Both the position numbers and the translations under genes were made by a program. Shown here piece after piece: positions 34,297 to 64,000 of a DNA stretch of 64,000 bases. The notes below the pieces were generated by a model that was given only the letters and a program-made list of their open reading frames with translations, had not been told where the DNA came from and did not search any database. Within the stretch, counting starts at the first letter, position 1; each line of letters starts with the position of its first letter. Source of the DNA: a bacterium (GTDB lineage: Bacteria > Hinthialibacterota > Hinthialibacteria > Hinthialibacterales > Hinthialibacteraceae); assembly GCA_963662285.2 (NCBI GenBank), contig CAXXMV010000001.1, positions 608,001 to 672,000 of the forward strand, written 5' to 3'.

Positions 34297-34369
34297 GCTG
34301 GCGTAGCTCAGTTGGTAGAGCAGCTGATTTGTAATCAGCCGGTCGGAGGTTCAAGTCCCCTCGCCAGCT
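34297..34369 (+). tRNA. tRNA-Thr(TGT)
   Basis: GCTGGCG/CGCCAGC acceptor stem, GCTGA-TTTGTAA-TCAGC anticodon arm, GGTTCAAGTC T-loop; CCA not encoded. Confidence 0.97.
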
Positions 34370-34430
34370 TATTCATTTCACTTGACTTAGGAATATTCAA
34401 AGCCTTCCCGTTACCTTTCTAAATACGCGA

Positions 34431-34451
34431 ATCGTGCAATGATCGTGCAAT
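34431..34451. repeat. Candidate integrase arm-type sites
   Basis: ATCGTGCAAT twice with an 11-bp period, between tRNA and integrase stop. Confidence 0.55.
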
Positions 34452-35654
34452 TTACTGATTAATAACCAAGCGTGGGAATGGTATTATTCCCGAATCCGCT
34501 GGAGCATTCCACTTAGCAACTGCATCATCAATATATGAAACCACTTTTTCACGAAACAATGGAAGCAACCTTTTTCCTTTATCTCCGTGGTAATGGCGCT
34601 CTCCAATCGATGTTGGTGCATGCCCAACGTAACGCTGCATGTAATACCCATACCATCCGCCATCAATAGATGCCGTTTGGATAGTGTTGCGCAAATCTTT
34701 TGGTTTAATATTGACAGATGAGTTCCATCTTAGTATTTCCCGGCGAACCGCGTGTGAGTAATTATCGAATGCAGCGTAACCGGGAATTACTGGTCCTTGG
34801 GGATCAACCAAAGGTCGCACTCTACGTAACAACCGTGCAACAACCATTGATACAGGAATTTTTCTAATGCGATAATGATTCTTAACGACCCCATCAATCG
34901 TGATAGTTTCGTCTTTTAGATCGACTTTTTCCCATGTGAGACGAAGGGCTTCTTGTAACTGAAGCCCAGCCAATCCTTGGAGGGCGATGCCCACAATGAG
35001 GCCGTCTAGACCTTCTTTCCGCGCCAACCAATCCAAAAAATTTAATACCTGATGAATAGATAGGTAGGGATTTCCTTCATCTTCGTTATAAGTCGAAGGA
35101 TGAGATTCTTTCCTAGACAACCTAATACCTTGGCAGAAATTTGTATAATGCTTTGGCCAATTTGATGCTACCCATGCGGCTGAACGGCGTATTGGTAGCA
35201 GATAAAGTCGGATTGAATCAAAGGCAAAACCATGATCTACGAGATATTTTTGGTAATTCAATACATGCTCGTATCGAAGTTCATGCCAATATGTTAGTCC
35301 TAGTTTATCTACCCACTCCAAAAAATATTCGCAGAATTTTTCATCTTTCCGTCGTGTATATTCTGCCCAGTTGCGCGTCTTCGCAGCCCGTAAGAGCGCA
35401 TCGCTGATCTGAAGAGGTTCGAAAGCGTTGGATTGTTGGACTCCAGTAGCCTGTGTGGCTTGTTCCTCCAAGACATCATTCGCCAGGGTCATGGCCTCAT
35501 TCAAGTCTTTGGCATCAAACCGTATCCGGCGATACTTGCCGCTGGAATCTCTGCCGCTGACTTTCCACCGCCCCGGCTTTTCCTGATGGAGTGTGAACCT
35601 GTCTGTTTTGTATTTGTTTGCTTCGTTTTTCAAAGAACTCGGGTTTTTTATCAA
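34452..35654 (-). CDS. Tyrosine recombinase/integrase
   Basis: GLQLQEALRLTW, VKN..RIRKIP, KDLRNT, YVGH, RHY; TTG start at 35654 has RBS AGAAAGGA (ORF track start 35702). Confidence 0.8.
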   Translation of the reverse strand: MIKNPSSLKNEANKYKTDRFTLHQEKPGRWKVSGRDSSGKYRRIRFDAKDLNEAMTLANDVLEEQATQATGVQQSNAFEPLQISDALLRAAKTRNWAEYTRRKDEKFCEYFLEWVDKLGLTYWHELRYEHVLNYQKYLVDHGFAFDSIRLYLLPIRRSAAWVASNWPKHYTNFCQGIRLSRKESHPSTYNEDEGNPYLSIHQVLNFLDWLARKEGLDGLIVGIALQGLAGLQLQEALRLTWEKVDLKDETITIDGVVKNHYRIRKIPVSMVVARLLRRVRPLVDPQGPVIPGYAAFDNYSHAVRREILRWNSSVNIKPKDLRNTIQTASIDGGWYGYYMQRYVGHAPTSIGERHYHGDKGKRLLPLFREKVVSYIDDAVAKWNAPADSGIIPFPRLVINQ

Positions 35655-35871
35655 GATGATTATCCTTTCTGACCACCTTGCCCGTTCCACGTTGACGAGC
35701 AAGATGTTGACATAATATGGTTAAAGAGTCAATAACGTTCTGTCCCCAATACCCTTTTCCAGGCAGTCCAACCAATCCAAATTCCCGCAACGACTCCAAC
35801 TTAACGAAACCGCGCAGGATTTCATTAAGTTCTTTGGAGTCGTATAGCGTATGAGGATCGATCTTTATCAT
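35515..35871 (-). CDS. Excisionase-like small DNA-binding protein
   Basis: LYDSKEL winged-helix-like N-terminus; lies between polA and int and overlaps int. Confidence 0.5.
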   Translation of the reverse strand: MIKIDPHTLYDSKELNEILRGFVKLESLREFGLVGLPGKGYWGQNVIDSLTILCQHLARQRGTGKVVRKDNHLDKKPEFFEKRSKQIQNRQVHTPSGKAGAVESQRQRFQRQVSPDTV

Positions 35872-35892
35872 TATTGATTTCTTAAACCGTTG

Positions 35893-37947
35893 TTATTTCG
35901 CTTCAGCCCAGTTAGCACCAACATTTGCTTCTACTAATCCGTTGGTTGCTGCATCCGGGAATATCTTTAACATGCCGTCAATCATGGCTTGTTGGAGAAT
36001 TTCTTTTGCTTGCTCTGAAACCTCTTTAGCAGCCTCTAATACTATTTCATCATGTATTACGTTGACCAATTTGGCATCAATACCAGATTCATTTATTGAA
36101 TGCTCTAATGCTGCCAGCGCGGCCAACATTATTTCAGCAGCGCCGCCTTGAATAGGAGTGTTTAAGGCTTCTGTATACCTGTAACCCTTTATTTCCTTAC
36201 GAAAATCTCTCACTCTCCCGCCTGGCGTCATTACCTTCATGTCTAATTCGGCTCTCTTGGCTGTCTTCTGCTGCCAATTTCGTAGATCGGGATATGCGGA
36301 GAAAAAGGCGTTTCGTGCTGTCTCCGCCTCGCTTTCAGACATTTCAACACCGTAGTTAGCCCTTGCGTATGCTGCCAATCCTTTGGCTCCCTGACCATAT
36401 AACAACCCAAAGTTTACGGCTTTTGCTAACCGACGCTGTTCGTCAGAAACTTGTTCTATCGATAGTCCTGCGATGGCAGCCGCCGTTTTTCGATGCAAAT
36501 CGATCTTCTGTGTATACGCCGCCAACATGTTTTGATCGTTAGAGACCAGAGCAGCGACGCGAAGTTCAATCTGGCTGTAATCTGCAACGACTAACACATG
36601 GTTCTGTGATGCACAAAACAGTGACCGGAATTCTTTGCCTCGTAAGGGGTTTTGAATATTTGGTTTTGAGCAGGACAAGCGTCCACTAACAGTCCCCCCT
36701 AATTTAAAATTAGCGTGAATTAAATTTGTTACTGGATTAATATATGTGGAGTATTTCTCTCCGTATGTTGAGATTTTTTTTGAGTATTCCTTATAGTTAC
36801 GGAGAGGTTGAACTAAAGGTTGATTAGAAAATTGTGCTAAGGTCGCTGCATCGGTTTTTAATTGTCCAGAGTTAGTTTTGGGCCATTTCGCTGATGTCTC
36901 AACACCCAAATTTTTCAATAACCATTCAGAAACTTGTTTGGGACTTGCTAAATTAATTTCAGCGCCGACGATCATGCGTAAATCTGTTTCGGCGGTTTTT
37001 TGTTCGGTTTCCCATCGATTAAGAAGAAGGTTATGCGCCGCACTGTCGAATCCAATGCCATTGAGTTCCATTTTGGCGATGGAAGGCAATGCGTTCAGCA
37101 TAAGCCGGTATACTTGATCCTTATTCTCATGCTTCAGTTTTGGGTTTTGTATGTGGTAGACTTTAAGCGCTACCACAGCATCCAACGCTGCATAAGAAAT
37201 TTGTTCTGGCGTGAGTACTGCGGCTCCCCAGCCGGACGTTTGAAGGGTTTTATTTAAATCCCAATTCAGAAGTGATTCGGCTAATACAGTTAATTTGGGC
37301 AACGAGCCATCCAGAGCGTTGGTTTGAAGCATCGTGCAGTCGATGTTTTGAATATTGATCCCAGCGTGGATCAGATGTTTGATTTCAAATTTGGCATTAT
37401 GGGCAACCAGATTCAAATCCCATATTGGAGATAAAATGCTTATACCGCCTAACGCTTTCACATCGAAAACATATACCTCCTTGCCTCCTGTATACAATTG
37501 AATCAACCGTATCCGAGATAAAGGCGGCGCCAGCCCTGCCTGCTTATGATCCTCATAACCATCAAGTTTTACTGTTTCTATGTCGAGACCAATAGGATTC
37601 GCGATTTTCACCAATGCGGATATCACTTGCTCCGCTGAATGTTTGTCCGTTATATATTGAGTGGTGATACCCGCCTGCTTTAATATTTCTGAAGCACTCA
37701 ATGGTTCGGCAGAGGAGGAAGAGGGATTAGGTTTAGAATCCCCTTCCCATACATCATTCGTGATTGCCGCTGCGCTCAGGAGACCTAATTCGATTGTCTG
37801 TAGTATTTCAGATTTATACTGACGAAGCGCCGTTTCAAATTCAGGGGTTAAAATGCTATCCGAAGCATCAACGATCAGTCGACCATCGTCAATTCCGAAT
37901 TTTACTGATGAGGATTTTAATATAGTCATTGTTTCAATCAGATTCAT
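35893..37947 (-). CDS. Family A DNA polymerase (3'-5' exonuclease plus polymerase, no 5'-3' exonuclease)
   Basis: GLDIET, HNAKFE, YAALDA; DYSQIELR, RRLAKAVNFGLLYG, IHDEIV. Confidence 0.92.
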   Translation of the reverse strand: MNLIETMTILKSSSVKFGIDDGRLIVDASDSILTPEFETALRQYKSEILQTIELGLLSAAAITNDVWEGDSKPNPSSSSAEPLSASEILKQAGITTQYITDKHSAEQVISALVKIANPIGLDIETVKLDGYEDHKQAGLAPPLSRIRLIQLYTGGKEVYVFDVKALGGISILSPIWDLNLVAHNAKFEIKHLIHAGINIQNIDCTMLQTNALDGSLPKLTVLAESLLNWDLNKTLQTSGWGAAVLTPEQISYAALDAVVALKVYHIQNPKLKHENKDQVYRLMLNALPSIAKMELNGIGFDSAAHNLLLNRWETEQKTAETDLRMIVGAEINLASPKQVSEWLLKNLGVETSAKWPKTNSGQLKTDAATLAQFSNQPLVQPLRNYKEYSKKISTYGEKYSTYINPVTNLIHANFKLGGTVSGRLSCSKPNIQNPLRGKEFRSLFCASQNHVLVVADYSQIELRVAALVSNDQNMLAAYTQKIDLHRKTAAAIAGLSIEQVSDEQRRLAKAVNFGLLYGQGAKGLAAYARANYGVEMSESEAETARNAFFSAYPDLRNWQQKTAKRAELDMKVMTPGGRVRDFRKEIKGYRYTEALNTPIQGGAAEIMLAALAALEHSINESGIDAKLVNVIHDEIVLEAAKEVSEQAKEILQQAMIDGMLKIFPDAATNGLVEANVGANWAEAK

Positions 37948-40562
37948 ATTACTATCCTCCTTCGCGGTTCATTTATTACATCTTTAGGAGGATCAGGAGG
38001 GGGATCTGTCTCTTCAAGCATAGAAAAGAGAGAAAGTTGTATAGGAGTTTTGTTTAAGGATCCGTGATTTGCGTCATGAGCGTCAGTTGTCTCCGGATCC
38101 ATCACGCTACACACGGTACTTACGGTGTTTTGAGTGTTTTTAGTTATCTCAAAGAGGCGCTGTGATTTTTTAGTGGTAGCATTCCATTCCGTATCATTAG
38201 GTGGGGTAACATCAATGCCAATTTTCCGTAAGGAGGGAATTAATCTACGAATTCGATTTGATAAGGTCCTTGGATAATCAGGCCAAGATTTAGTTCGCTG
38301 AATTCGTTCGGGAACATATCCGCCAAGTTCTATTAGCAGATCTTGAGCAATACCTTCCCACGTCAGTCTCGTTTCCATTAACTTTACTATGGCCGATGCG
38401 ATGGGATCTTCTTCCAATACTTTCTCAATAGCATTCGCTTGGTTTCTTTCATAAATTTCTAAAAACCTCCCAGGTGCGCACTCAAGAGCGGGTTCAGCAG
38501 CTGTAGCTAAACAGGCGAAATCAACCATTCGAGGTTTTCGCGGCAGTTGGACTTTGTTAATGTTCTTCAAAGCCACACTGAGTGCATCAAAAATTGCCCC
38601 AAGGATTAAAGGGCTTTCTCGATTAAATTTTTCCCAGAACACTGTTTCTTCAATTCGCTGTGTATCGTTAATTGGAGGAAGATGTATATTTAACATACGG
38701 TCGATCAAGTCCGGTTGGTGGGCAAAATCGACTATTCCATTTAGTATGACTGGACACAACACGTTAAATTGAATCTCTTCATCATCTGTGTACAGTTTTC
38801 GTGTGGAAAAACCGCCGCCAGTAGAAAGCCTGCAAAGAGAATCAGAATTCTCTAGAGAAAGATTTGACAGATTGTCAAACGCGAGAATTCCTTGATGTTG
38901 GACTGAAATAATCAAGTCTCTTTCATTTTTTGGAAAGGCTCTTAGGGGATTGTTAACCGGATCTATCAAAGAACGAACCACTCTTGTTGCCGTGCTCTTT
39001 GCGCTACCGTGTTCACCTTGCAAATTCAAGATTGGTTTTGGCGTATTAAGCCGGAACGCTTCTAGTATCCAACTGACCAGGAGCACCAAATCATCATCCT
39101 TTTCTAAATTAATAAACTTTTTCAGAGACTTAACCGACCCGCCGCGCCGAGGGGTGGGGAGGGGGAGCATTCCGCTCGGCTGGAGAAATCGGATTATTTC
39201 ATTTTTAGTTATATCCCAACCAGAAGATGTTATGCTTACTACTTCTCCGCATGCATTCGCCAGATCTACATAGATGGTACCGTGATTCTCCGCAATGCGC
39301 GTGTATACCTCGGATTGAGTTCCTTCGTATAATCCCTTTGCTTCTAATAGATCTATAGCATCTTGTAATGGTTGTTTGCTGAGAGATTTTTTGTATTTAT
39401 TAAAATACCTGTAATGTAGAATGCTTGATATTTTTTTGCTACGGACAGGGTATGTTTTATTACATGTCTTCTCAGATATAGTAGCATATGCTTTCTCATC
39501 TTTTGTATGGAAAAGTTCAAAGTCCGTGATAAGCGGACCGATTCCCGATGGTAAAGATTCGTCGCTTTCTGTGTTGGGAGTATTCTTCTCTTGTGAATCG
39601 TTATAATGAGCGTTCGTATGAGCAAGAGCATTTTGGATGGTTTGGCGCCGGTAATCTTCACGTTCCCATTTTTCACGATACAACTTGGATTGACGAAAAA
39701 TACGATCAATTTGGTTCAGCGACTGCGTCCAGAATGCAAGAATACAGCATAAGGCTGAATCCGCTTCAGACGCCGACCCGTATCCGGTGATATCTCCAGC
39801 GTATAACCTCTGAAACAGTGAACCATTCTTCGCTGATTTAGCACGGGCTATAAGGTCTTCATCACTCATCTTCTCGGCACAGATAGTGGCTGGAAGTGAT
39901 GCAGAATCGTCATCAAACAACTGCTGGAATAGACCGTTTAATTCAGTCGTTCGCTCTTGGATGGATAAGGATTGTCCCTTAAGACGATTCCCTGTAACAG
40001 TGAAATAGCGGCCTTGGTCATACAGTTCAATACCACCTTTGCGGTTGTGTCCAGACGGTAGGCTGCCTTTAATGATTACATGCAAGCCCTGTCCACTGGG
40101 GGTTATTTCCGTGTACGAATCCATTTTGTCGACTATTTCTTGCGCCCAATCCTCCAATCGTTCGGTGCCTGGATCGTAGCAATGGTCCAGATCAATCCCA
40201 ACATAAGGATCATCGCCAGTGAATACAAAGCCAATCCCATCAAATCCGCCGTTATTAAAACTTTGCAATGCATCATCATGAGTCGCCCAAGTAGAAAGAT
40301 CATTTATACGTGCCGGGCTACCATTGGCCTGATATGGTACTTTCGTTATCTTGCCGTTGCGCTCTTGTTTTCTCCAAAGTACCCATTGAGGTTGTTGCTT
40401 AATCTCAACAGGAATGTTTTCCTGTTTGACTTGGGGTGACTGGTTATCCATACATACTGTTGTGTTGCCCTTTGTCTTTGCGTCATTTGAAGAATCGTTG
40501 GATACCTCTACTTCCTGGGATTGCCCCATGAAATCTAAAACATCTTGACTTATACTACTCAT
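37944..40562 (-). CDS. NrS-1-like primase-polymerase fused to a helicase-like P-loop domain
   Basis: QWVLW...KVP, GIGF, GIDLD, YTEITPSGQGLH, SASEAD; GEHGSAKST, FDN, RKLYTD; RBS AAGGAG before ATG 40562; ATGA overlap with polA. Confidence 0.85.
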   Translation of the reverse strand: MSSISQDVLDFMGQSQEVEVSNDSSNDAKTKGNTTVCMDNQSPQVKQENIPVEIKQQPQWVLWRKQERNGKITKVPYQANGSPARINDLSTWATHDDALQSFNNGGFDGIGFVFTGDDPYVGIDLDHCYDPGTERLEDWAQEIVDKMDSYTEITPSGQGLHVIIKGSLPSGHNRKGGIELYDQGRYFTVTGNRLKGQSLSIQERTTELNGLFQQLFDDDSASLPATICAEKMSDEDLIARAKSAKNGSLFQRLYAGDITGYGSASEADSALCCILAFWTQSLNQIDRIFRQSKLYREKWEREDYRRQTIQNALAHTNAHYNDSQEKNTPNTESDESLPSGIGPLITDFELFHTKDEKAYATISEKTCNKTYPVRSKKISSILHYRYFNKYKKSLSKQPLQDAIDLLEAKGLYEGTQSEVYTRIAENHGTIYVDLANACGEVVSITSSGWDITKNEIIRFLQPSGMLPLPTPRRGGSVKSLKKFINLEKDDDLVLLVSWILEAFRLNTPKPILNLQGEHGSAKSTATRVVRSLIDPVNNPLRAFPKNERDLIISVQHQGILAFDNLSNLSLENSDSLCRLSTGGGFSTRKLYTDDEEIQFNVLCPVILNGIVDFAHQPDLIDRMLNIHLPPINDTQRIEETVFWEKFNRESPLILGAIFDALSVALKNINKVQLPRKPRMVDFACLATAAEPALECAPGRFLEIYERNQANAIEKVLEEDPIASAIVKLMETRLTWEGIAQDLLIELGGYVPERIQRTKSWPDYPRTLSNRIRRLIPSLRKIGIDVTPPNDTEWNATTKKSQRLFEITKNTQNTVSTVCSVMDPETTDAHDANHGSLNKTPIQLSLFSMLEETDPPPDPPKDVINEPRRRIVI
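38062..38136. repeat. Iteron-like motifs in the primase 3' end
   Basis: CCGTGATTTGCGTCATGA is the exact 18-bp reverse complement of 43423-43440; ATCACGCTACACAC at 38101 resembles ATCACGGTACACAC at 43434. Confidence 0.6.
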
Positions 40563-40800
40563 AACAGAACTCCTTATAGTTTTGTCAGGGAGGGGCTTCC
40601 GCATTAACTGGCCAGTTTTGTTTGGAGCCTCTCCCGCTTAAAAATCTGTGTAACCGTTAATAGCCGTTACCGCTAAAATTATAATCACTATACTTTTACA
40701 GCAAGTAACGTTCCATTGTTAATAATAAAAAAAATTAACCTTTCATAAATACTTGAAATCACATTGTTTACATGTCTATGATAATTGACCACAAAACATG

Positions 40801-40882
40801 TCAGGAATCATGAAAACAGTTTCGGGAATGTTCGGATTGATTATTAATTGAATCAGGAATCGATGTATGCATTTTGGGAATT
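40801..40882 (+). promoter_or_regulatory. Four phased TYRGGAAT direct repeats
   Basis: Starts at 40801, 40822, 40853 and 40874 (spacings 21, 31, 21 bp). Confidence 0.55.
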
Positions 40883-40889
40883 CTTATTG

Positions 40890-41510
40890 GTGGGTTACCC
40901 AGTAGGTGGCCTGCTAAGACTGGAGTTTATTCACACGAACAATTGAAAAGGCTTGGTGTAGGGTCACATTAAATACTCTGCATTCGCTCACTGTGCTACG
41001 GTGAACCATCGAGTGTTGGTTAGTGTGATATACCAATGATCAGTGGGTTTAACTAACCCCATAGTCGCCCGGTGTGATCCGACTTGCGCTAGGGCCATAT
41101 TGTTCAAAGGGTTCTTATTCAACTCGAACAGGGAAGACTGAATAAAGAGGCTTACACGGGCTAAAAGATAGATTTCGAAAGGGTGAAGGTAACCGTTCTA
41201 GCGCCATCGCCATGAATCTGTCGAAAAACACCATAAAGAAACACAACCGCATGGCGGAGCAACATGTATTTCTCGGTACCTTCAAACCGCTGCCATCCAT
41301 CGAAGAACTAGGCGGCGCCCCTATCATCACCCCAACTCATGCACAGTAAGGTAGAACCGTATGAAGAACAAACCTGTCTTTTGTTGGACGCCGAAACTGG
41401 GTAGCAAACTATCAGGCTGCGCTTGCATAACGACTACGGGTATAGCGGGAGTTATTCGTCCTGGCGGCTGGAAGAACCTGTACCTGAAAGAACCAGAGGT
41501 GTTCTGCTGA
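40890..41510 (+). ncRNA. Candidate large structured ncRNA of unknown class
   Basis: No credible ORF; more than ten complementary segments of 6-11 bp, including a 10-bp helix 40894-40903/41396-41405; G-U pairs and A-rich linkers favour the + strand. Confidence 0.55.
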
Positions 41511-41558
41511 TCAATTTCAAATACTATTCGCAGCGATTCTTTTATTTGCTTGATACAA

Positions 41559-43289
41559 TTAACTGTGATCACAAATATAAAACGGGTATTTTTCTTTCTT
41601 TTCTCTTAATGCTCCAGAAGGGTGGTTATTTCGAATAGTATTTTCCGGTTTGCTAAATTTAACACTGGCTCCTTTAACATCATAACCAGAAAAATATAAA
41701 TATCCGCCGACAGACTTTTCCCGTTGTGAAAGACAGTAGGCCATATATATACTTTGCGCAGATGGTGTATTTTCCAACGTTACACCGTCCTCATCTAACT
41801 TATCCTTGAAATTCTCTACGATAATATCGGGCGTCACCGTATACCCAACCTTATTGCCAAAAAGATGATGTTCGTTTACTGATGCATATAGTTTCTCAAT
41901 CCCGCTAATCAACTCACGAACGTTTCCGCTGTTAAACAGGAATGAGCCATACATCATGAGCGCTGTTGGTGTAAAAGATATTTTGTTATTAGTGTTTGTT
42001 GCGCTGTATTTTTTATATCCAGGTAGATAATGAAGACTTAAAAGTATCCGGTCAAAATCACGGTCTTTAAGTGGGGGAACGCAGATCGCATTATCGACTT
42101 TTAACCGGTATAATAAATCGTGTTGTACTGCTGCCAGGAGTTTTTCTTTATCGAGATTTGATGCCACTATGATTTTAACTTCAACCCCAATATCTGTGTC
42201 GCTACCCAGTCTCCTGATCTTCTTTTCTTCTAAAAAGCGGAGAAGCATGGCTTGGCATTTGGAATCTAAGTGGTGGATTTCATCGAGAAATACGATTCCA
42301 TCATTAGCTTGTTCAAATAATCCTTTATGCTGCTTGTAAGCACCCGTGAAAGCCCCCTTTTCGTGGCCGAATAATAAACTGTATGCCGTGTTTCCGGATA
42401 CCGACGCACAATTGAATGAATGTATATCAGATTTGGTCAATTTACTAATGGATTGGCTAACTAGTTCTTTGCCTGTTCCCGTTTCTCCCAGAATGAAGAT
42501 AGGATCATTGTTATAATTGACTATGACATTCTTCATTACCTTTACTATTGCGGGACTGTAGCCTTGCCAATCATCGAACGCTCCTGGGAAATTGTTTTTA
42601 ATCTTGTTGTAATCTTCGTCCGGAGTTATTTTTTCTTCAATTTCTTTTCGCATCGCGATAGTTTTTGATTCCCATCCTTCAGACCAGTTCTTCTGGTCAT
42701 CATAAATTTCACAGCAAAGAATATCCGCTTTATCAAATTCTTCTAAAATGATATAGGTTTCGGCCAGGATGTCCTTGAGTGAAAGTAGAATGGAGACGAC
42801 AAAACCATGTAAATTAAATGATAGTGGAGGTTCTGATTCATATCGATAATGGAGTTCAATATTTTGGTTTTCAAATGGCTTAATTGTTTCAATAAGCAGC
42901 AACAACATTTGAGCATGCTTTTTTAACTTTTCTATTCCGTTTGGTATTGTCCACCAGTAGTCGCCTGGTTCCATACCCACGTATAATTCAGATGTGATCT
43001 CTTGTTGTGATGAAGAAAAAGAAGACATTATATTTATATCTGTACATCGTTTAAAAAAAGCATAATCGATTTCACTGCTGATATCCAAATCAAAAAAATC
43101 TTTAATAACTGTTTCTATGAAAGGATAAGAATCGGAAAAGAAAATCGATTCCGCATCGTTTCTATCGATACTAAGAGTTGTTGCTGCCTTATAAAAATTT
43201 GTCATCCAATCTTCGCCAAATGGACTTCTTATTTGGACGTTAGGAATTATTGATTCCATCTGCGCTGCAATAAGGTCGGCGTGACGCAT
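41559..43289 (-). CDS. Sigma54-dependent enhancer-binding protein with unrecognised N-terminal domain
   Basis: GETGTGKE, LFGHEKGAFTGA, VFLDEI, DLLYRL, GNVREL; C-terminal HTH-like segment. Confidence 0.88.
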   Translation of the reverse strand: MRHADLIAAQMESIIPNVQIRSPFGEDWMTNFYKAATTLSIDRNDAESIFFSDSYPFIETVIKDFFDLDISSEIDYAFFKRCTDINIMSSFSSSQQEITSELYVGMEPGDYWWTIPNGIEKLKKHAQMLLLLIETIKPFENQNIELHYRYESEPPLSFNLHGFVVSILLSLKDILAETYIILEEFDKADILCCEIYDDQKNWSEGWESKTIAMRKEIEEKITPDEDYNKIKNNFPGAFDDWQGYSPAIVKVMKNVIVNYNNDPIFILGETGTGKELVSQSISKLTKSDIHSFNCASVSGNTAYSLLFGHEKGAFTGAYKQHKGLFEQANDGIVFLDEIHHLDSKCQAMLLRFLEEKKIRRLGSDTDIGVEVKIIVASNLDKEKLLAAVQHDLLYRLKVDNAICVPPLKDRDFDRILLSLHYLPGYKKYSATNTNNKISFTPTALMMYGSFLFNSGNVRELISGIEKLYASVNEHHLFGNKVGYTVTPDIIVENFKDKLDEDGVTLENTPSAQSIYMAYCLSQREKSVGGYLYFSGYDVKGASVKFSKPENTIRNNHPSGALREKKEKYPFYICDHS

Positions 43290-43373
43290 GATCCCTCCAG
43301 TTGTATTGGGGTGGTTGAATTACATATTTACTCTAAGATTACAAGCCCTTTATACGGGAATTACACCATCTTG

Positions 43374-43388
43374 GCAATATGCGTGCCA
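43374..43388 (-). promoter_or_regulatory. Sigma54 -24/-12 promoter
   Basis: Minus strand reads TGGCAC-GCATA-TTGC, an exact consensus match ~85 bp upstream of the bEBP start. Confidence 0.75.
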
Positions 43389-43422
43389 TTTTAGTTATTT
43401 TTTAATACAATTCATTTTTTAT

Positions 43423-43594
43423 TCATGACGCAAATCACGGTACACACAGTGTTTTTTGAAAATAATATAATATTCTATACCTTAGTATGACTATTATATA
43501 CTACTATTTCTCTTCTTAAAAAGGAAAACAACCGTGATTTGCGTGTGTTGCGTGATGGCAAAGAAGATTCCACACGATCCTGACGCAAATCACG
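43423..43594. repeat. Cluster of ACGCAAATCACG repeats around an AT-rich core
   Basis: Copies at 43426-43439 (+), 43531-43544 (-) and 43581-43594 (+). Confidence 0.7.
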
Positions 43595-43608
43595 CAGTAA
43601 TGTAAAAA

Positions 43609-44739: not shown

Positions 44740-44999
44740 TATAAATCCCTTTCTTCACAAACCCGTCGGTAAAAAGGTGACTGTGACTGAAAACTGTTTT
44801 ATCACAACGGCGTAACAGTAACAATAGAAGATCCTTAATCTGCTCACAAACGAAGCACAATTTCCCATATTCTCCAAACATGCTTATTATGATATGCCCA
44901 ATCGACCGTAGAAGCCGTATGGTGATTTAACTAAATTTTTTATCAAGGACAAATATATGAAATTAAAAAGAACTCATCCTTATAAGGAGGTAAAGTCAA

Positions 45000-45155: not shown

Positions 45156-45167
45156 GAGAGAAATATT

Positions 45168-56424: not shown

Positions 56425-57504
56425 AAATACTTAAATTCCCATCGTTTTTCTATTAACCAAAATCTTATCATGTTCCATAAAATTGACTTTAGGAATCATC
56501 TGCGATAGTAGTTAGCGAGTCAATTACCCCAGTTCGAAAACAAAAAAAACGTGAACCTGTCAGATAAAGGACGCTGCTTTTTAGAAGACTTAGTAGAAAA
56601 AGCCGCTTTTCTTACATCAAGCAGTGCTCATGGTAATCCCACAAAGACAGTCTGTCTCAAATAGTCACCCGCCATATTATTCGCCCCACCGCAACTTTCA
56701 CTGCATATAATCCACTTATCCACCCTAACCTCTCCAGGAGTAGACGTAGGCATGGGTCCAGATGAAACGTATTTATCTTACTGGACACAATTCTTCTTGA
56801 CTCATGATTTTCAAATTATCGATTAGAATACTCGATTTGACGCCGGGACCGCCCAATTGTACTACGCCAATGGGTGCAAATATTATAAGTAACTGGTTTT
56901 TGCTTGCCGATATGATTTATTACACCAGAACAAACTACAGGCGTCAACTGAACTGAACAACATATACTTACAACTAATAAATACATATATAATAAATAAT
57001 ATGCCAAATAAGTACCAAATATATTCATTATTTGCAAAAATTTTGGGTGGAATCGATAGAAAAATGAATTATGCACTACGCTTTTGATCCATAATACTGA
57101 ATAATACAACTGTATGTATTGACTTAATTGAATGACCTTGATGCGTAAGTATTAGATTGTTTGAGTCTCGGCGTTTTTACGTATCATTGAATAGTTATTT
57201 GTTTATTGTTGAAAACCTTGTAAAGTAACTCTTGTTATTTGCTGTTTTTATTCTCTATTGCATTCGACATGAACCGTTTTTGCGCAAAATCTTGTTTTTT
57301 AATGGATGTTTCTAGTGATATCACGGAAACCAATGGTGTTACGCTTATAGGGGCAGGTGTTCGGTTAAGTTTTCCTGTAATACTTATTGATTGTTGATGA
57401 ACATCAGAAGAAACGATGGTTGCGCTTTTAGTCTACCGATTAAACTCGGTTGCTTTTTGTTTGATCAAATCTTAAAAATCTCAAAATGCAGAGGAGAATT
57501 TATT

Positions 57505-59853
57505 ATGAACATGGTGAAATCTTTACGCTTCAATGCAACGCGAAAATTTGTATTTTACGGGATGATGGCATTTTGCTTTATGTTTTCCCAGAGTGGCGCT
57601 ACCCAGGAGACGATAGTTATCGATATTCCAAACTTACCGGCAGGCGCTAAACCCCTGGAAATGATACGAGTACCAGCAGGGACTTTTCTCATGGGTGCAC
57701 CAGCCGAAAAAGTTGAGAGTTTTGATGATGAAAAAGATGAATCTCCACAGCACAAAGTTTCAATCACTAATCCGTTTTATATTGGAAAATACGAAATAAC
57801 GCAGGCGCAATGGAAAGCAGTGATGGGCGATAATCCTGCGAAGGATTTCGGTGAAGGAAATGATTACCCAGTTTATTTTGTGTCATGGAATGACTGCCAT
57901 AGTTTTATAGAAAAACTTAATTCACTTGGACAAGGGCGATTTCGCTTACCAACTGAAGCGGAATGGGAGTATGCCTGTCGAGCGGGTATAACAACAGTAT
58001 TCTTTTGGGGAGACGACCCAATTTCTATTAAACTAATAGATGAATATGCGTGGACTTTTGGGGAAAATGAAGCAAAAAAATGTCATGTTGTTGGATTAAA
58101 AAAAACAAATCTCTGGGGATTATCTGATGTCAAAGGTAATGTTTGGGAATGGTGTTATGATTATTATGGCAAATATGTCTCAGCCGATCAAATTGATCCA
58201 AAAGGGCCTTCATCAGGAACTCACCTAGTAGTTCGTTGAAATGGTTCTATTAGATTAGTTCCAGACCATTGTTCTTTAACAAATCGAGGCATGGGTTCAC
58301 AAAATGAACGACATAAAGAGATTGGTTTTCGCATTGTACGAGAATATACAAGTCTACTACCGACGCCAATAATAACTCCAACGCCAACAGTTACTCCATT
58401 CCCAACCCCCACCCAGACGCCAACACCTGTTTCAGCGGGGACAGAACCTTTTGAATTGCCATTGAATGTGGATATCGGCCCATCAACGTTCAACCTTAAT
58501 TTGGGTACAAACGAATCAGCAACCGTCATATATGATCCAGGGATTGATGTATTAAGCCCTCCAGCCGATCCATCGGGTAGAGAAGCATATTTTATTCTTG
58601 TTTCCGGTGAAAAGTTGTGGACGGATTTACGTAATCTTGATACAGAGAATAGAAAATGGACTTTAATCATCACGGTTCCGCCCAATCAGCAAGCCACGAT
58701 TGTATGGAATCCAGAATTAATTCCCGATGACGGATATTTTGTTCCCGTTGATGCAATGGGGCGTCCTTCTGGGAAATCTATCGATATGAAGACGGAAATT
58801 TCTATCGACATTGAGGCGCAAGGCGGATTTGTTGCACGGAAGTTCTATTACCAAATTAATTTTGAAACAATTCTACCGGTAACCTTAGATTACGATTTGG
58901 TACGCGGCTGGAATTTAATTTCTGTACCGTTGCTCGTCGAGGAAAACGTAGTTCCAAGTAGCGTATTTGGAGCAATCACGCCAATATGGTCTTATAATCC
59001 GGAAATCTCGCAATACGAAATCCCAACATCCTTCGAGATGCAAAAAGGTTATTGGGTTTATGTTGAGCATGATCAACTTTTCCAAATAACAGGCCGCCAA
59101 GATAACAACCTTCCTATTACATTGATTCCAACCTGGAATTTGATTGGCGTTAATCAATCCGTTCTTCGCAGCACAGAAGGAATCGGTGTCGTATGGGGAT
59201 ATGATAACGTCAAAAAGAGATATATTCCTGTCGCGCCAACAGAATATTTAGAACCGCAAAAAGCGTATTGGTTCCAAGTCGGCGAACCAATTGAGTTGTT
59301 CTCGGATACTCCGCCAGCGAAAGTATCACATCGCGTAAACAAGGTAAATACGTTGAACGTTGAGACTCCATCAATTCTCTATTTGATTAATCCATCGATT
59401 GGTTCGGCACCTTTAGCGACATTAGAACTGGGAAGAGACGCCTCCGCTATCAATGAACTCGGTCCAGAAGATCTTCTTGCGCCCCCACCAGTTCCTGATT
59501 CAGACGGGAATGCATTTTTCTTGCTTAACACAGGGGTAGATTACGTAAAAGTAATGCGTGATGTACGTAGTATGCAAGGCAACCTCACTTGGCTTCTAGA
59601 AATCGATCAGAATCCAGGGATACCCGCCTCGCTAACCTGGGATGCAGCGGTCTTTGATGAACTAGCCCAAGCAGAGATTATTGAAATCGATCCAAATACG
59701 CTGCAACCAATAGCAGGATCCTCTTCAATAAAAATGGCGATTACCAATTCTTTACAGTTGGCTGCACCACAAGGCTTCGGTGGTACAAGTCGTTTCTTCC
59801 AAATTACATTATCAGAAAATACCGCCGTTTATGATTGGTTTATCATGAATTAA
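57505..59853 (+). pseudogene. Secreted FGE-sulfatase (SUMF1) domain protein with PT linker and C-terminal beta domains, one in-frame TGA
   Basis: GKYEITQAQW, RLPTEAEWEYACRAG, GNVWEW; stop at 58237-58239, then the same frame continues to IGFRIVR and ORF 58291-59853. Confidence 0.8.
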
Positions 59854-59985: not shown

Positions 59986-60357
59986 ATGGCAGCATCCTTT
60001 GATTTACCAGTAATATTGGGCAAATTAACGTTGTGTTTGGTTGGAATAGTGTTGATGGCGTTATTATGTTCATGTAATAGTGAACCACCCCCGCTCACAA
60101 TCGAATACACCCCCACCCCACAAATCCACGAACAAACCATCCAGGAAGTCCAAACCACTCTCGCCAACATCCAAGAAACTCAGCGACAACTCATCCAGTC
60201 TCAAAAAAGCATTGATAACATGAAACTTGAGGCGGAACAGATTCGTCATCAATCCGCATTTCTGAAAGGCTTAGGTATTTCGGGGACTATTATGGCTTTA
60301 GTGGCTGGCGCGGCGCTGGGTTCCAGAGCACGTAACGCTGCCAAACGAAAGAGGTAA
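59986..60357 (+). CDS. Hypothetical membrane or lipoprotein with coiled coil
   Basis: RBS AAGGAGG; hydrophobic N- and C-terminal segments. Confidence 0.65.
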   Translation: MAASFDLPVILGKLTLCLVGIVLMALLCSCNSEPPPLTIEYTPTPQIHEQTIQEVQTTLANIQETQRQLIQSQKSIDNMKLEAEQIRHQSAFLKGLGISGTIMALVAGAALGSRARNAAKRKR

Positions 60358-60363
60358 TTGCTT

Positions 60364-60816
60364 ATGGTCAAAAATCGAGAGAACAAAAACGATGTAGCCG
60401 TTATTCAATCCAAAGAAATCGCGCAATCCCGCAGCACTGAATTATCACCCACGAAACTCCTCGACTTAATCCCTCCCGTATATCCGCTTACTGAACCAAA
60501 CGTGGATCGACTTATATCAAGACGGCATTGGCTTGAACGATCAACTGAAGTTTTGGCATATTCCATCAAATCCTTCGAGTACGCATTGTCGCCATCAGGA
60601 CGCCTTCGTCAGTTTATCAAATTGAATCTGTTATTACTCTGCATTATTGGCATCCCGCTGCTCATCTTCCTGCCCATTACCGCTTTCGCATTCAATCAGC
60701 TTGTTGATATCACTTATAACCTTCAACTGTGCATTAATCATCTGCTGCAAGCCGCTGTACCCGTCATGATTCTGGTTTTTGTATTATCTCTGATCGTCAT
60801 TATGGTTAAGAGATAG
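60364..60816 (+). CDS. Hypothetical two-TM membrane protein
   Basis: RBS GAGG; two hydrophobic helices. Confidence 0.65.
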   Translation: MVKNRENKNDVAVIQSKEIAQSRSTELSPTKLLDLIPPVYPLTEPNVDRLISRRHWLERSTEVLAYSIKSFEYALSPSGRLRQFIKLNLLLLCIIGIPLLIFLPITAFAFNQLVDITYNLQLCINHLLQAAVPVMILVFVLSLIVIMVKR

Positions 60817-60874: not shown

Positions 60875-61222
60875 ATGCTGAATCATTGCGTATTAACCGG
60901 TAATTTAGGCGGTGATCCAGAAATAAGATATACAGCCAATGGAGATCCCGTCGCAACTTTGAACCTGGCGTTTAGATTTGGTAAAGATCAAACCGGATGG
61001 ATCAAAGTAACATGCTTCAAAAAACTGGCTGAACTCTGCGAAAAGTATCTTCACAAAGGCGCGCGGATTGGAATTGACGGGTATCTGACCCATGAATCGT
61101 GGGAAACGCAGAACAACGAAAAACGAACTGCGATCAAGATCATTGCCAACTCCCTGGAATTCATCAAAACCGACGGGCGTGGATTCAAAGAAGGTGAAGA
61201 CGCCAGTGATCTCCCGTTTTAG
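60875..61222 (+). CDS. ssb: Single-stranded DNA-binding protein
   Basis: LNHCVLTGNLGGDPE, YLHKG, acidic tail DLPF. Confidence 0.93.
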   Translation: MLNHCVLTGNLGGDPEIRYTANGDPVATLNLAFRFGKDQTGWIKVTCFKKLAELCEKYLHKGARIGIDGYLTHESWETQNNEKRTAIKIIANSLEFIKTDGRGFKEGEDASDLPF

Positions 61223-61253: not shown

Positions 61254-61970
61254 ATGAACCAAGAAGAACTCGAACAACAAAATCCATCCAAACCCAAATT
61301 GGATGATCGCTTCATCATGAATATCAAAGACAAGGAATTTGTTCAATACGCGGGACTGTTAGATTTGGCGCATCAACACGGTCTGATTAAACTGGAAGTC
61401 GAACATCTGCAATTCCCAAGTAAAGAGAATAACAATGTAGCCATCTGCCGGGCAATTGCGACGACAAAAACAGGTGCAGTGTTTTCTGATATCGCCGATG
61501 CTGATCCCCATAATGTCAATAAAATGATTGCGCCGCACATATTACGCATGGCCAGCACTCGCGCCAAAGCCAGAGCCCTACGGGATATGTGCAACATCGG
61601 CATCACCTGTATGGAAGAATTGGGATCATTGGATGAAGTAGTCGGAGAAAACCAGTATTCGAACAATAACAAAAAATCATCATCACCAACTCGCAATAAC
61701 AACAGCAAACAGCCGCCAAGCAATTCAGCATCGCCTGAGAAAAACACAGAACAATCAACTGCTTCAACTCCAAAATCAACCCATGATTCACAACTTGCGC
61801 CGAAACTCTCTGAAGCCCAGCACCGCGCCATTCGCAATCTCAGTAACCGCCGCGGCATCAAAGAAGATGAATTGAATAGTTTGGCTGTTAAGACCTATGG
61901 CGCGTCGGTCGATCAACTCACATTAAGCGACGCATCATCGTTCATCCGTACCTTACAACAAACCGCATGA
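61254..61970 (+). CDS. Putative Rad52/Erf-like single-strand annealing protein
   Basis: YAGLL...GDA-like IADA...RMASTRAKARALR...EEL, flexible linker, C-terminal LSEAQ..AI helical domain; context next to ssb and nuclease. Confidence 0.55.
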   Translation: MNQEELEQQNPSKPKLDDRFIMNIKDKEFVQYAGLLDLAHQHGLIKLEVEHLQFPSKENNNVAICRAIATTKTGAVFSDIADADPHNVNKMIAPHILRMASTRAKARALRDMCNIGITCMEELGSLDEVVGENQYSNNNKKSSSPTRNNNSKQPPSNSASPEKNTEQSTASTPKSTHDSQLAPKLSEAQHRAIRNLSNRRGIKEDELNSLAVKTYGASVDQLTLSDASSFIRTLQQTA

Positions 61971-62079: not shown

Positions 62080-62886
62080 ATGGATATACAAACGCTTCGC
62101 CAACAACCGCATCTGTCCGCGTCGTCGATACAAAGTTACATTGAATGTGGTCTGCAATACAAATTTGGTAAGATCGACAAGATTAAATCCGAATACACAT
62201 CTGATGCCATGCTGTTTGGATCATGCATTCACAAGGCATTAGAAAAGTTGCATATCGCCAAAAAGGATAATCGCGAACTCCCATTGGAGAGGTTACTCGA
62301 ACTGTGGGAATCCGAATGGCAAAAGGAATTAAAAAAGCATCCAGACATCCGGTACAAAGAAGGAGAGAGTGTCGATACTCTTCTGCATCAAGGCCGGAAA
62401 CTGTTGACAACCTATTTCAAACAGCGCCCACAGGATTCATTCAAAGTGATCTCTACAGAAAAACCATTCGCTTTTAATCTGGAAGGTGTTCCAATACCTA
62501 TTATCGGCGTTACTGATCTGATCGAAGAAGATTCCGCAGGTAATATTATCATCACCGATTTCAAAACCGCCAGCAAAGCCTATTCCTCTGACGATATCGA
62601 CAAGAGTTTTCAACTGACTGTGTATTACATGGAGGTACGGCAAAATGGATTGGCGAACCGGGAGATACTGCTGAAATTCGATTGTCTGGTCAAAACAAAA
62701 ACACCCAAGTTCCAACAGTATTACACCGTGCGCACGCCTGAAGATGAGAACCGGGCCGTCCGCAAGATTCAAAAAGTCTGGCAAGGCATTGAGAAAGGCG
62801 TGTTTATCCCCAACGATACATCGTGGAAATGCGGATATTGCATGTACAAAGATCATTGTGACAAATGGTTTCAAAAACGACAGTGA
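62080..62886 (+). CDS. PD-(D/E)XK nuclease (RecB/AddB/Cas4-like) with four-Cys cluster
   Basis: HLSASSI...EC, GSCIH, GVTDL, ITDFKT, QLTVY, CGYCMYKDHC. Confidence 0.88.
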   Translation: MDIQTLRQQPHLSASSIQSYIECGLQYKFGKIDKIKSEYTSDAMLFGSCIHKALEKLHIAKKDNRELPLERLLELWESEWQKELKKHPDIRYKEGESVDTLLHQGRKLLTTYFKQRPQDSFKVISTEKPFAFNLEGVPIPIIGVTDLIEEDSAGNIIITDFKTASKAYSSDDIDKSFQLTVYYMEVRQNGLANREILLKFDCLVKTKTPKFQQYYTVRTPEDENRAVRKIQKVWQGIEKGVFIPNDTSWKCGYCMYKDHCDKWFQKRQ

Positions 62887-62967
62887 AAACGAATTGATTT
62901 CAGGCTCTCAATCAACAACGACCATGATTGGATTTTAGGACAAATCAAAAAGAAGGAGATTCTTATC

Positions 62968-63207
62968 ATGAAGTCAAACATTATCGTCAGTGTAGGCGGC
63001 GGCGTTGTACAAGGCATTTGGGTATCGAAAGACATTCTTGATACGGTTCAGGTGATTGTGAAAGATTATGATTGTCAGCAGGACGAAGATCAACCAAATA
63101 TGATGAAAGATGAAAACGGGGATATCTGTGAGATGCAAAGATGGGATCAGGATAATTTCATCATCTTAACTGATGTCCAGGAAGGATTATTGAAAAACGT
63201 GATATAG
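62968..63207 (+). CDS. Small hypothetical phage-like protein
   Basis: RBS AAGGAG; IIVSVGGGVVQ...VKDYD. Confidence 0.6.
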   Translation: MKSNIIVSVGGGVVQGIWVSKDILDTVQVIVKDYDCQQDEDQPNMMKDENGDICEMQRWDQDNFIILTDVQEGLLKNVI

Positions 63208-63240
63208 ATCAATTCAAAAGAAGGGAGGATAACATTGTCT

Positions 63241-63999
63241 ATGCTTGAATTGAACGATCAACAAAAGCAAGCGGCTGAGTTCTATCAAGGAACAGCGATG
63301 GTAATTGCAGTGCCGGGCAGTGGTAAAACGCTAACCATGACTCATCGTATTGGCAACTTGGTTGAAAAATACAACGTGCCTCCCGAACAGATATTGGGGA
63401 TGACGTTTACCCGTAACGCAGCTCATGCCATGCGGGAACGTCTCAAGCCGCTGTTGGATAAAAAGGCCAAGCGCGTTCTATTGACCACCATCCATAGTTT
63501 CTGCTTTTACGTGTTGAAGCGGGAAGGCTATGCATTCGAATTACTCACCGGCCACGATCAAGCATCGTTACTCAAAAACATCATTAACGATCTTAAACTG
63601 AAGAATCTGACCGTGGGTATGGTACTGCGAGAGATCAGCCTTTCCAAAAACAACCTGATACTATTGGATGAGTTTCAGAATTTACATGACGGCGATTCAA
63701 CCATGCTTCAGGTTGCCCAGGTTTATGATCAGTACGAACAACGCAAATCGAAGAAGATGTTGTATGATTTCGATGATTTACTGCTCAACGTCCAGGCGAT
63801 TCTGAATGAGAAGCATGATGTTAGAGACAAGTACAGAGAAATTTACCGCCATATCCTGGTGGATGAATTTCAAGATACCAATCCGGCGCAAATGGAAGTG
63901 TTAAAACTGTTGCTGGCAGACTCGACCGAAGAATCCAGTTGTTGGGTATGCGGTGATGATTGGCAAAGTATTTACGCATTCAATGGAGCCAGCGTCAGC
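63241..63999 (+). CDS. UvrD/PcrA-family helicase, 3'-truncated by window edge (absent from ORF track)
   Basis: LNDQQ, AVPGSGKT, TFTRNAA, TIHSFC, DFDDLL, VDEFQDTN, GDDWQSIY. Confidence 0.92.
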   Translation, partial: MLELNDQQKQAAEFYQGTAMVIAVPGSGKTLTMTHRIGNLVEKYNVPPEQILGMTFTRNAAHAMRERLKPLLDKKAKRVLLTTIHSFCFYVLKREGYAFELLTGHDQASLLKNIINDLKLKNLTVGMVLREISLSKNNLILLDEFQNLHDGDSTMLQVAQVYDQYEQRKSKKMLYDFDDLLLNVQAILNEKHDVRDKYREIYRHILVDEFQDTNPAQMEVLKLLLADSTEESSCWVCGDDWQSIYAFNGASVS

Positions 64000-64000
64000 A

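Follow-up and report, generated by a model that had tools for sequence, protein, structure and literature searches.

What kind of genetic element installs a replication machinery of its own beside a tRNA gene and yet shows no sign of a capsid or a conjugation apparatus? The question is raised by a stretch of 64,000 nucleotides from a bacterium of the Hinthialibacterota (hereafter the window; G000:C1:608001-672000, from a genome of 7.29 Mb in 8 contigs, 92.5% complete with 3.5% contamination). A sequence-only reading of the window had described, at a tRNA-Thr gene, an integrase, a family A DNA polymerase (PolA), a primase-polymerase/helicase, a nuclease, a UvrD helicase, a sigma-54 activator and a type I restriction-modification (R-M) system, with no visible capsid or conjugation genes, and our searches recovered every one of these at the coordinates given below. 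We refer to the island in the window as element E1 and to a sister on contig C6 as element E2. We consider it probable that element E1 is a discrete integrative mobile element from a small family that counts at least one intact sister, and that it is capsid-less and non-conjugative with sigma-54-gated self-replication. Its backbone consists of an operon on the side of the left attachment site (attL), a sigma-54 activator, and a cassette for a protein that binds single-stranded DNA (SSB), annealase, exonuclease, UvrD and DUF932, together with DUF669 proteins.

The limits of element E1 are marked by a 47-bp exact direct repeat at its integration target. ARAGORN placed a tRNA-Thr(TGT) gene on the plus strand at 34297-34369 (Rfam tRNA, 67.1 bits), and attL (34325-34371, unstranded) covers this gene from the anticodon loop through the 3' end (the 3' 45 nt) plus 2 nt. 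Extending the sequence past the window, a course already proposed in the sequence-only reading, uncovered the second exact copy (attR) at window-equivalent 75518-75564 (C1 683518-683564; L001 12518-12564, where L001 coordinates plus 63000 give window-equivalents), which was the sole 40-mer match to attL within 300 kb downstream. By these repeats element E1 measures 41.2 kb and continues 11.5 kb past position 64000; the earlier figure of at least 29.6 kb holds as a lower bound, but the window end is not the end of the element. The integrase gene adjoins attL. Paired CGTGCAA repeats are present on both the attL side (ATCGTGCAATG, 1.9 copies at 34431-34451, unstranded) and the attR arm, where ATCGTGCAACGACCGTGCAAT forms the matching pair within a conserved non-coding stretch (L001 ~12029-12517), and we read these pairs as candidate arm-type integrase sites. 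The first gene past attR encodes an HTH_17/PTS-EIIA regulator and is followed by glycoside-hydrolase-like genes; this DNA is taken to be chromosome. Just past attR, C1 683565-683590 resembles the element side of attL (window 34372-34397) over ~25 nt, TTNATTTCACTNGACTT, a motif that falls inside the exact repeat in element E2 and that may be part of a core-type site or the trace of earlier integrations. An empty attB was sought in relatives without success: none of 19 genomes in the family had a match to the 697-aa protein of the left flank, and the right-flank gene has an 80% orthologue in genome G013 with no tRNA in the 14 kb around it.

Element E2 was found by tblastn of 39 element E1 proteins against the genome. 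It lies on contig C6 at 283859-346098 (loci L011-L016) in a tRNA-Arg(TCT) gene, spans 62.2 kb and is bounded by a ~61-bp repeat at 283859 and 346038. The two elements share four DNA blocks at 84-93% identity: the N-terminal two-thirds of the integrase gene (int) with orf118 and most of PolA (34855-37512, 88%), orf105 with the second DUF669 gene (DUF669b) and orf65 (45688-47225, 93%), orf123 to orf111 (60064-66621, 91%), and the non-coding arm beside attR, whose whole blastn segment is 84% identical over 523 nt and near-identical from about alignment column 195 to the att core (the last ~380 nt). Backbone proteins other than the integrase are 82-99% identical. Overall, the integrases share 60% identity, and their DNA match ends before the C-terminal third, from which we infer that arm binding is conserved and core recognition has diverged to suit Thr versus Arg tRNA. 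Element E2 also differs in its primase/helicase (AAA_25; PHROG primase/helicase 1.2e-35) and in its activator, which is 31% identical to that of element E1 (AAA+ domain 1.6e-38). Its cargo comprises Dpd/DISARM-like helicases with a methylase, Mrr, a TGT-like protein, five histidine kinases, HU and two insertion sequence elements, and the C-terminus of a 1514-aa protein is a PolA domain (PADLOC 'RTasPolA' 1.4e-29). All backbone open reading frames (ORFs) are intact in both elements. A backbone kept constant at two different tRNAs while replicase and cargo are exchanged carries, in its sequence, the apparent signature of an active element family and not of a decayed prophage.

We then asked what the two elements encode for transfer between cells. 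Genes were annotated with Pfam, PHROGs, NCBIfam and PADLOC, and in element E1 no capsid, portal, terminase, tail, lysis, type IV secretion system (T4SS), coupling-protein or relaxase family was matched among 41 ORFs searched with Pfam (28 from the window and 13 within the element on L001, UvrD counted once) and 36 searched with PHROGs (23 and 13, that is, without five genes of the R-M operon). Element E2 likewise gave no structural or transfer family (31 ORFs with Pfam, 21 with PHROGs), and T4SS, type IV coupling protein (T4CP) and relaxase families were also not found with NCBIfam. A TraI_2_C match (E 0.005, below cut-off), located on a reverse transcriptase, is not credible. The 11.5 kb between the window end and attR, in which a phage structural or T4SS module could have lain, holds UvrD, DUF932, a diversity-generating retroelement (DGR) and an operon for E1, E2 and JAB proteins, and neither of those modules. 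Unannotated ORFs are all of 152 aa or less, except DUF932 (309 aa), and the coding space of element E1 is essentially accounted for. By profile searches, element E1 is without the virion set of a tailed prophage and without the T4SS/T4CP/relaxase set of an integrative and conjugative element (ICE). A decayed prophage stripped of its structural and lysis modules would leave replication and recombination genes of phage type, such as those with PHROG matches here, and DGRs are often phage-borne. However, structural remnants are missing from element E1, element E2 and eight annotated loci that share the recombination cassette, exact repeats and intact backbones are kept in both elements, and the nearest PolAs are 37-41% identical in IMG/VR viral contigs versus 50-54% in contigs of bacterial metagenome-assembled genomes. 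We regard such an origin as very improbable.

The attL-side operon of element E1 runs in the order primase-helicase, PolA, 118-aa ORF and tyrosine integrase, all on the minus strand. The integrase gene (34452-35702; Pfam E 1.9e-5, below cut-off; PHROG integrase 6.8e-19) probably starts ~17 codons further inward, because the orthologue in genome G004 has a stop at codon 10. The 118-aa ORF (orf118, 35515-35871) overlaps the 5' end of int and is 96.6% identical in element E2 and 57% in G004; it occupies the position of an excisionase, but no excisionase profile or other family of Pfam, PHROGs or NCBIfam matched it, and the earlier label of a xis-like gene was not upheld. The PolA (684 aa, 35893-37947) contains only a 3'-5' exonuclease domain (exo1, 3.4e-23) and a DNA_pol_A domain (6.7e-89) in Pfam, without a 5'-3' exonuclease domain. 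Its motifs DIET, DYSQIELR, RxxAKxxNFG and HDE are all present and intact, and the alignment shows no variation at exonuclease residues D122 and E124. The best structural matches by phmmer were 8jrb, an unnamed DNA polymerase I (1e-78), and apicoplast 5dku (2.6e-70), with Klenow behind them (1.3e-57); placed by these closest structures, the enzyme appears to be of the apicoplast/Aquificae-like type (cluster 8).

The fourth gene of the operon encodes an 886-aa protein (37944-40604) with an NrS-1-type AEP primase-polymerase (primpol) and a C-terminal P-loop helicase. It shares its AEP and helix-bundle domains with the polymerase of phage NrS-1 (NrS1-1_pol-like_HBD, Pfam 1.1e-20; PDB 6a9w/6k9a/7rr3, E ~1e-37, 9.5e-38 for 6a9w), but NrS-1 is a virus with a capsid, whereas the element E1 protein sits in a capsid-less island. 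The helicase half is closest to proteins from related genomes (36-50% identity).

Relatives of the PolA were retrieved by alignment-based scans of genome and viral contigs, single-protein patterns having found nothing. The nearest in species genomes (50-54%) belong to Desulfobacterota, Nitrospinota, Acidobacteriota, Binatota, Chlamydiia and others, and viral contigs (IMG/VR) held distant PolAs only (37% for full-length and 41% for partial matches). From 80 loci kept, eight were annotated (135 ORFs), and PolA adjoins recombinases and primase/helicase-type genes in four of them: L017 (primpol-like ORF, PolA, serine recombinase, and thereafter housekeeping genes), L018 (resolvase, type III R-M system, Schlafen protein, DUF3987), L019 (DUF927, DnaG-like primase, two integrases) and L023 (integrase, Toprim-DUF3631-exo-PolA fusion). 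Around the close PolA relatives (47-54% identical) of the remaining four, the genes appear to be of housekeeping type. These latter loci speak for an immobile, domesticated island in which integrase and att sites are relics and the PolA, primpol, annealase, nuclease and UvrD serve host repair or defence. A Thermus element, as described in PMC7693054, offers a parallel in a primase-polymerase that is dispensable for replication of the element and acts against environmental DNA, and primpols of mobile genetic elements can act in repair according to PMC11724360. Against domestication stand two copies with exact 47-bp and ~61-bp repeats in two different tRNAs, conserved candidate arm sites beside integrases that have apparently diverged to match different cores, backbones intact in both elements, and the exchange of the replicase module between element E1 and element E2, which is typical of active elements. 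A domesticated state strikes us as quite unlikely.

The regulatory gene of element E1 encodes a 576-aa sigma-54 enhancer-binding protein (41559-43289, minus strand; Sigma54_activat AAA+, Pfam 8.8e-44) that is closest to RtcR-type models and keeps Walker A (GETGTGKE), Walker B (FLDEIH) and an intact GAFTGA loop, features with which it is predicted to be competent to contact sigma-54. Its N-terminal sensor region (residues 1-245) had no match among 1.84 billion representatives. Downstream of the activator gene are two small ORFs (71 and 81 aa; 41115-41572, minus strand) that matched no family, and the host carries rpoN at C2 674833-675312.

We scanned both elements for TGGCAC-N5-TTGCW, allowing at most one mismatch and requiring GG and GC. 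Six sites were found in both elements together, three of which are intergenic and co-oriented with the next gene, each with one mismatch. The first, TGGAACGTTACTTGCT, lies ~95 nt before the primpol start codon (40700-40715, minus strand); the second, TGGCACGCATATTGCC, ~85 nt before the start codon of the activator itself (43373-43388, minus strand); and the third, at C6 289585, precedes the element E2 operon for a 137-aa protein, primase-helicase, PolA, orf118 and int. At the genome-wide rate (147 sites in 2 x 7.29 Mb), 0.015 sites would be expected in the three upstream regions (1488 nt), compared with the three observed, and the site-bearing regions of the two elements are not homologous. 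Upstream of the activator promoter-like site, three copies of CGTGATTTGCG (two direct, one inverted; 43424-43594, unstranded) form a candidate binding site for the activator or an operator; the whole genome contains seven copies, four of them in element E1. Together, the promoter-like sites directly upstream of the replicase operons in both elements agree with the sigma-54 control that had been proposed for the locus, and they suggest an induction logic for the replicase-integrase operon that would be activator-gated and not repressor-released. A narrow literature search, a thin basis for claiming that the arrangement is unpublished, found no sigma-54 activator governing the excision or replication of a mobile element.

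The remaining backbone genes lie on the plus strand and concern single-stranded DNA and recombination. A DUF669 phage-type ssDNA-binding protein (copy a, 45168-45608; Pfam, PHROGs) is followed by a block of orf105, DUF669 copy b (46444-46977) and orf65 (45954-47232). Directly upstream of the first DUF669 gene, a strong Shine-Dalgarno sequence precedes a 51-aa ORF (45000-45155) of ribbon-helix-helix-like type; ribbon-helix-helix families matched it below cut-off (E 3e-4 to 4e-3), and its product may regulate the ssDNA-binding genes of the plus strand. The second block reads, in order, orf123 and orf152 (59986-60816, no family matched), an SSB with an OB fold (60875-61222; Pfam, PHROGs, NCBIfam), orf238 (61254-61970), a PD-(D/E)XK nuclease of Cas4/RecB-like exonuclease type (62080-62886; Pfam, PHROGs, NCBIfam), orf79 (62968-63207), a 627-aa UvrD/PcrA-type helicase (63235 to window-equivalent 65118, its 5' part in the window), DUF932 (309 aa; L001 2173-3102) and orf111 (L001 3199-3534). 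Three of the four SSB-like genes counted in the sequence-only reading thus have profile support (two DUF669, one SSB), while the fourth was unconfirmed.

The gene described there as annealase-like is present as orf238, and its assignment draws on fold comparison, no sequence profile having matched. The predicted model (31 sequences) has a mean pLDDT of 68.6, with residue blocks covering 41-110 averaging 83-94. Its N-terminal beta-beta-beta-alpha domain retrieved Rad52 chains by Foldseek at E 2.5e-3 to 3e-2 (TM 0.2-0.5), and its C-terminal three-helix domain resembles the SSB-binding C-terminal domain of Red-beta (TMt 0.72, root-mean-square deviation 1.8). Although weak, this support is coherent, and orf238 is a probable single-strand annealing protein of Rad52-like type. 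Many of its relatives carry an additional SWIM zinc finger. For DUF932, Foldseek returned nothing credible and the best VIA-align Z was 6.5; residues 19-108 gave an OB-like match to RPA/Teb1 at Z 5.0-6.1, which is below the caution line of the tool and serves as a lead only.

We next considered how widely this module occurs. The recombination cassette is widespread in metagenome contigs with the same gene order: among 80 loci retrieved with an orf238 alignment and viewed within 10 kb of the cassette, many of them short contigs, SSB was present in 68, the nuclease in 55, UvrD in 34 and DUF932 in 17. A close relative, L098, has 81-97% protein identity and different left-hand cargo. Eight cassette loci with 107 flanking ORFs yielded an EcoRI-type methylase/GmrSD, AAA_21/HNH, SIR2, a pPIWI-associated nuclease, RadC and transposases; none of those ORFs matched a structural or T4SS family. 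The gene order of the element recurs elsewhere, in element E2 at tRNA-Arg, on a 4-kb contig of G004, which represents a related genus, and, for the recombination module, in L098.

Such gene content invites comparison with phage satellites, which would excise and replicate only on helper infection, be packaged in helper capsids and use their defence cargo against competing phages. With P4-like, phage-inducible chromosomal island (PICI) and other satellites (cfPICI, PLE, PICMI), element E1 has in common an integrase, insertion at a conserved host gene between att repeats, a replication module with primase/helicase, defence cargo and a lack of virion genes, and its tRNA site, rich defence cargo and phage-type primase-helicase and annealase are all in keeping with such a lifestyle; indeed, an integrase with an own replication module and no virion genes is how satellites are defined in PMC13376191. 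However, the same source quotes 7-20 kb for satellites, far below 41.2 and 62.2 kb, and the whole cassette was found in none of the 16 viral contigs carrying the annealase domain. Profile scans of both elements detected no helper-hijack genes, whether TerS, capsid-remodelling, a cos/pac function or a helper-sensing repressor, although divergent hijack genes are possible. Element E1 also adds to the satellite repertoire a PolA, the full annealase/exonuclease/UvrD set and a sigma-54 activator. To our knowledge, the described satellite families encode no DNA polymerase. We judge a satellite identity to be unlikely.

The same cassette could instead belong to a mobilisable island, similar to an integrative and mobilisable element, that excises, replicates by UvrD/PcrA and its own polymerase and is transferred in trans by a T4SS. 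The combination of SSB, annealase and exonuclease is also found in SXT/R391 conjugative elements, the JAB protein weakly matches the 'ICE_VC0181' model (E 3e-5), and DUF932 is reported on islands sharing prophage and ICE hallmarks in PMC7466150. This explanation appears doubtful to us, given that no relaxase, coupling-protein or T4SS family was found in either element; no oriT was identified, although an oriT is not recognisable by sequence alone.

The self-replicating integrative element that we favour, which the sequence-only reading had put forward with a satellite as an option, would work as follows, with excision and replication of element E1 inferred from its gene content and a satellite retained as one option among several. 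In the resting state, the sigma-54 promoter before the replicase-integrase operon would be silent. A signal sensed by the orphan N-terminal domain of the activator would lead to ATP-dependent open-complex formation, and integrase, primase-helicase, PolA and a possible directionality factor (the 118-aa ORF) would then be co-produced. The element would excise by recombination between the 47-bp repeats, and the excised circle would replicate with its own primase-helicase, proofreading PolA, SSB and DUF669 proteins, while the annealase/exonuclease/UvrD set would process, resolve or recombine the replication products. DNA might reach new cells by way of helper capsids, a helper T4SS or transformation.

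Several observations weigh against this reading. Complete backbones are rare: at E<=1e-60, PolA matches were present in three of 35 genomes of the phylum (G000, G004 and G026), that of G026 being only 32% identical, and among 5.8 billion proteins the best PolA other than itself reaches 56% identity. Matches to the primpol occurred in 8 of 41 genomes, and int-orf118-PolA-primpol synteny was seen only in G004 among five relatives with loci fetched, on a 3989-bp contig (C105; L010). There the PolA stops after residue 443, without the catalytic palm and fingers motifs, and is either a decaying copy or an assembly artefact. On the regulatory side, no DNA-binding domain was detected in the activator of either element (in element E1, neither HTH_8 nor another helix-turn-helix family of Pfam or NCBIfam matched its C-terminal ~100 aa), the element E2 activator is without GAFTGA, and the same scan found no sigma-54-like site before its gene; sigma-54 control may be decaying in element E2 or may rely on the element E1 activator in trans. 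Approximately ten backbone ORFs (orf118, orf105, orf65, orf123, orf152, orf79, orf111, DUF932 and others) carry no assigned function and could include a divergent relaxase or packaging protein. Finally, no replication origin was identified in the element, and Logan contigs (three runs, one study) compared with 26000-44000 contained no attP or attB joint. Loose contig ends at the tRNA come from the tRNAs of other organisms, and Logan word depths of 4.5 and 6.2 at 37447-44000 and of 4.7 and 6.0 in the left flank are not copy number and were not used as evidence.

The cargo of element E1 consists mostly of anti-phage or diversity systems, namely the type I R-M system, the DGR and the E1/E2/JAB operon. 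The R-M genes occupy the minus strand at 47448-56424 and encode a YgjP metallopeptidase, HsdR, a Schlafen/AlbA_2-HATPase_c_4-wHTH protein, HsdS and HsdM. A perfect 12-nt tandem repeat, TTTTTGGTGAAC in 4.3 copies (51434-51485), lies inside the Schlafen/AlbA-type gene, where, the repeat being in frame, a change in copy number would add or remove four residues.

The complete DGR (window-equivalent 67352-71525) comprises a reverse transcriptase (L001 4408-5541; PHROG 3.8e-118), Avd (L001 5538-5885; NF033474 4.8e-37), a template repeat (L001 4352-4470) and variable repeat (L001 5990-6108), and a target with a C-type-lectin fold. The repeat pair is 119 nt long with 25 differences, 24 of them at template adenines. 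The template repeat lies downstream of the reverse transcriptase and not between it and avd, and the variable repeat ends 5 nt before the end of the target ORF. This target, the only one detected, is an 846-aa protein (L001 5985-8525) in which a xylanase-type GH10 domain is combined with the C-type-lectin-fold domain that is diversified (FGE-sulfatase domain 7e-52). A glycoside hydrolase whose binding module is hypervariable seems an unusual target for a DGR. A gene for a DUF1375 lipoprotein precedes the DGR (L001 3620-3940).

Beyond the DGR, an operon at window-equivalent 71644-74529 encodes an E1 enzyme (ThiF; L001 8986-10191), JAB (L001 10198-11094) and an E2 enzyme (L001 11098-11529), without a cyclase or a recognisable ubiquitin-like protein, and by sequence it appears related to Cap2/Cap3 and Bil-type systems. 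A 107-aa transmembrane-like ORF beside these genes, the fourth of the operon (orf107, L001 8644-8967), was considered as the ubiquitin-like protein and rejected, as it looks like a small membrane protein without a C-terminal glycine.

A further gene, with an FGE-sulfatase domain and a beta-propeller-like part, is split into ORFs of 282 and 520 aa (57391-59853, plus strand) by a TGA in frame (58237-58239), which is either a recent nonsense mutation or a fault of the assembly; its closest relative is one 801-aa protein (66% identity). Homologues resolved the 520-aa ORF, for which the protein atlas gave nothing above 0.81, as the C-terminal part of this protein. The 282-aa protein had 32 further tblastn matches on five contigs, seven of them clustered at C8 1040260-1055582, which by sequence makes it a member of what appears to be a large paralogous family within the genome, and no second variable repeat was found for it. 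A 237-aa BNR/sialidase-like protein and a 94-aa ORF (43609-44739, minus strand) are duplicated as a pair, at 78% identity, in the chromosome outside both elements (C6 1155385-1156449). A candidate large RNA that had been suggested for the island did not hold up: Rfam at gathering thresholds and at E<=1 found the tRNA only, and the largest gaps, 44740-45167 (which holds the 51-aa ribbon-helix-helix-like ORF) and 56425-57390, showed no folding beyond that of shuffled sequences (z +0.57 and +0.47).

Where, then, does element E1 stand among known systems? Staphylococcal cassette chromosome elements (SCC/SCCmec) use serine recombinases and insert in orfX. Like element E1, they are integrative, have no capsid or conjugation genes and encode their own helicase, an enzyme of A-family-polymerase fold and an ssDNA-binding protein. 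With their Cch helicase, CCPol-MP primase and SSB, they are regarded as 'mobile and replicative' in PMC10061031 and PMC11724360, and PMC10201439 describes CCPol-MP as a truncated primase missing most of its exonuclease domain. In contrast, element E1 encodes a tyrosine integrase and sits at a tRNA, its PolA is full-length and of the proofreading kind, the AEP primase-helicase is a separate protein, and the element is 2-3 times larger; by analogy it would work like SCC cassettes but is not a member, having neither Ccr nor a truncated CCPol. Pipolins are likewise integrative, with their own replicative DNA polymerase and no capsid genes. Unlike them, element E1 has no primer-independent PolB among its ORFs and carries PolA and the AEP primase-polymerase instead.

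The long-B prokaryotic Argonaute (pAgo) islands (AgaPP/AgaPH) share with element E1 a tRNA flank, genes for integrase, AEP primase-polymerase and helicase, and a variable stock of defence genes. The integrase-PrimPol-helicase pAgo island is read as a replicative mobile element by the authors of PMC11724360. These islands, however, have no PolA, recombination cassette or sigma-54 activator, their AEP is of another group, and their helicase is a separate DUF3987 protein. For cluster 8 (apicoplast/Aquificae-like) PolAs, the 2023 classification gives the prokaryotic role as unknown and describes fusions to AEP primase-polymerases in Verrucomicrobia, Planctomycetota and Nitrospirae (PMC10201439). 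Element E1 differs from those fusions in that its PolA and primpol are adjacent genes and the mobile-element context is explicit, and the shared context in elements E1 and E2 suggests that a cluster 8-like PolA may act as the replicase of integrative elements. The general category is not new, because bacterial AEPs are already described as 'nearly exclusively associated' with integrated mobile elements (PMC5862659). Element E1 works like the described replicative integrative elements, yet misses a defining feature of each. That elements E1 and E2 found a new family, capsid-less, non-conjugative and self-replicating, with an operon gated by its own RtcR-like activator with a unique sensor, is a claim we put forward only tentatively.

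Known capsid-less, non-conjugative replicating elements, namely satellites, SCC, pipolins and primpol islands, are mostly small and confined to few phyla. Element E1 is a much larger version from a little-sampled phylum, with a near-complete phage-style replisome and recombination kit and a cargo of three or four defence or diversification systems, and its sister copy shows the exchange of backbone and cargo. Its interest lies in this replisome and recombination kit, in the natural experiment that two copies provide, in the sigma-54 logic and in the link to an orphan PolA clade, and is tempered by a mobility that is deduced rather than observed. The SSB-annealase-nuclease-UvrD-DUF932 cassette, found on dozens of metagenome contigs beside defence genes, may mark such islands. 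If the proposal is true, a stress or infection signal would make the island excise and multiply along with its defence cargo, and the Aquificae-like/apicoplast PolA clade would gain a concrete role as the replicase of integrative elements.

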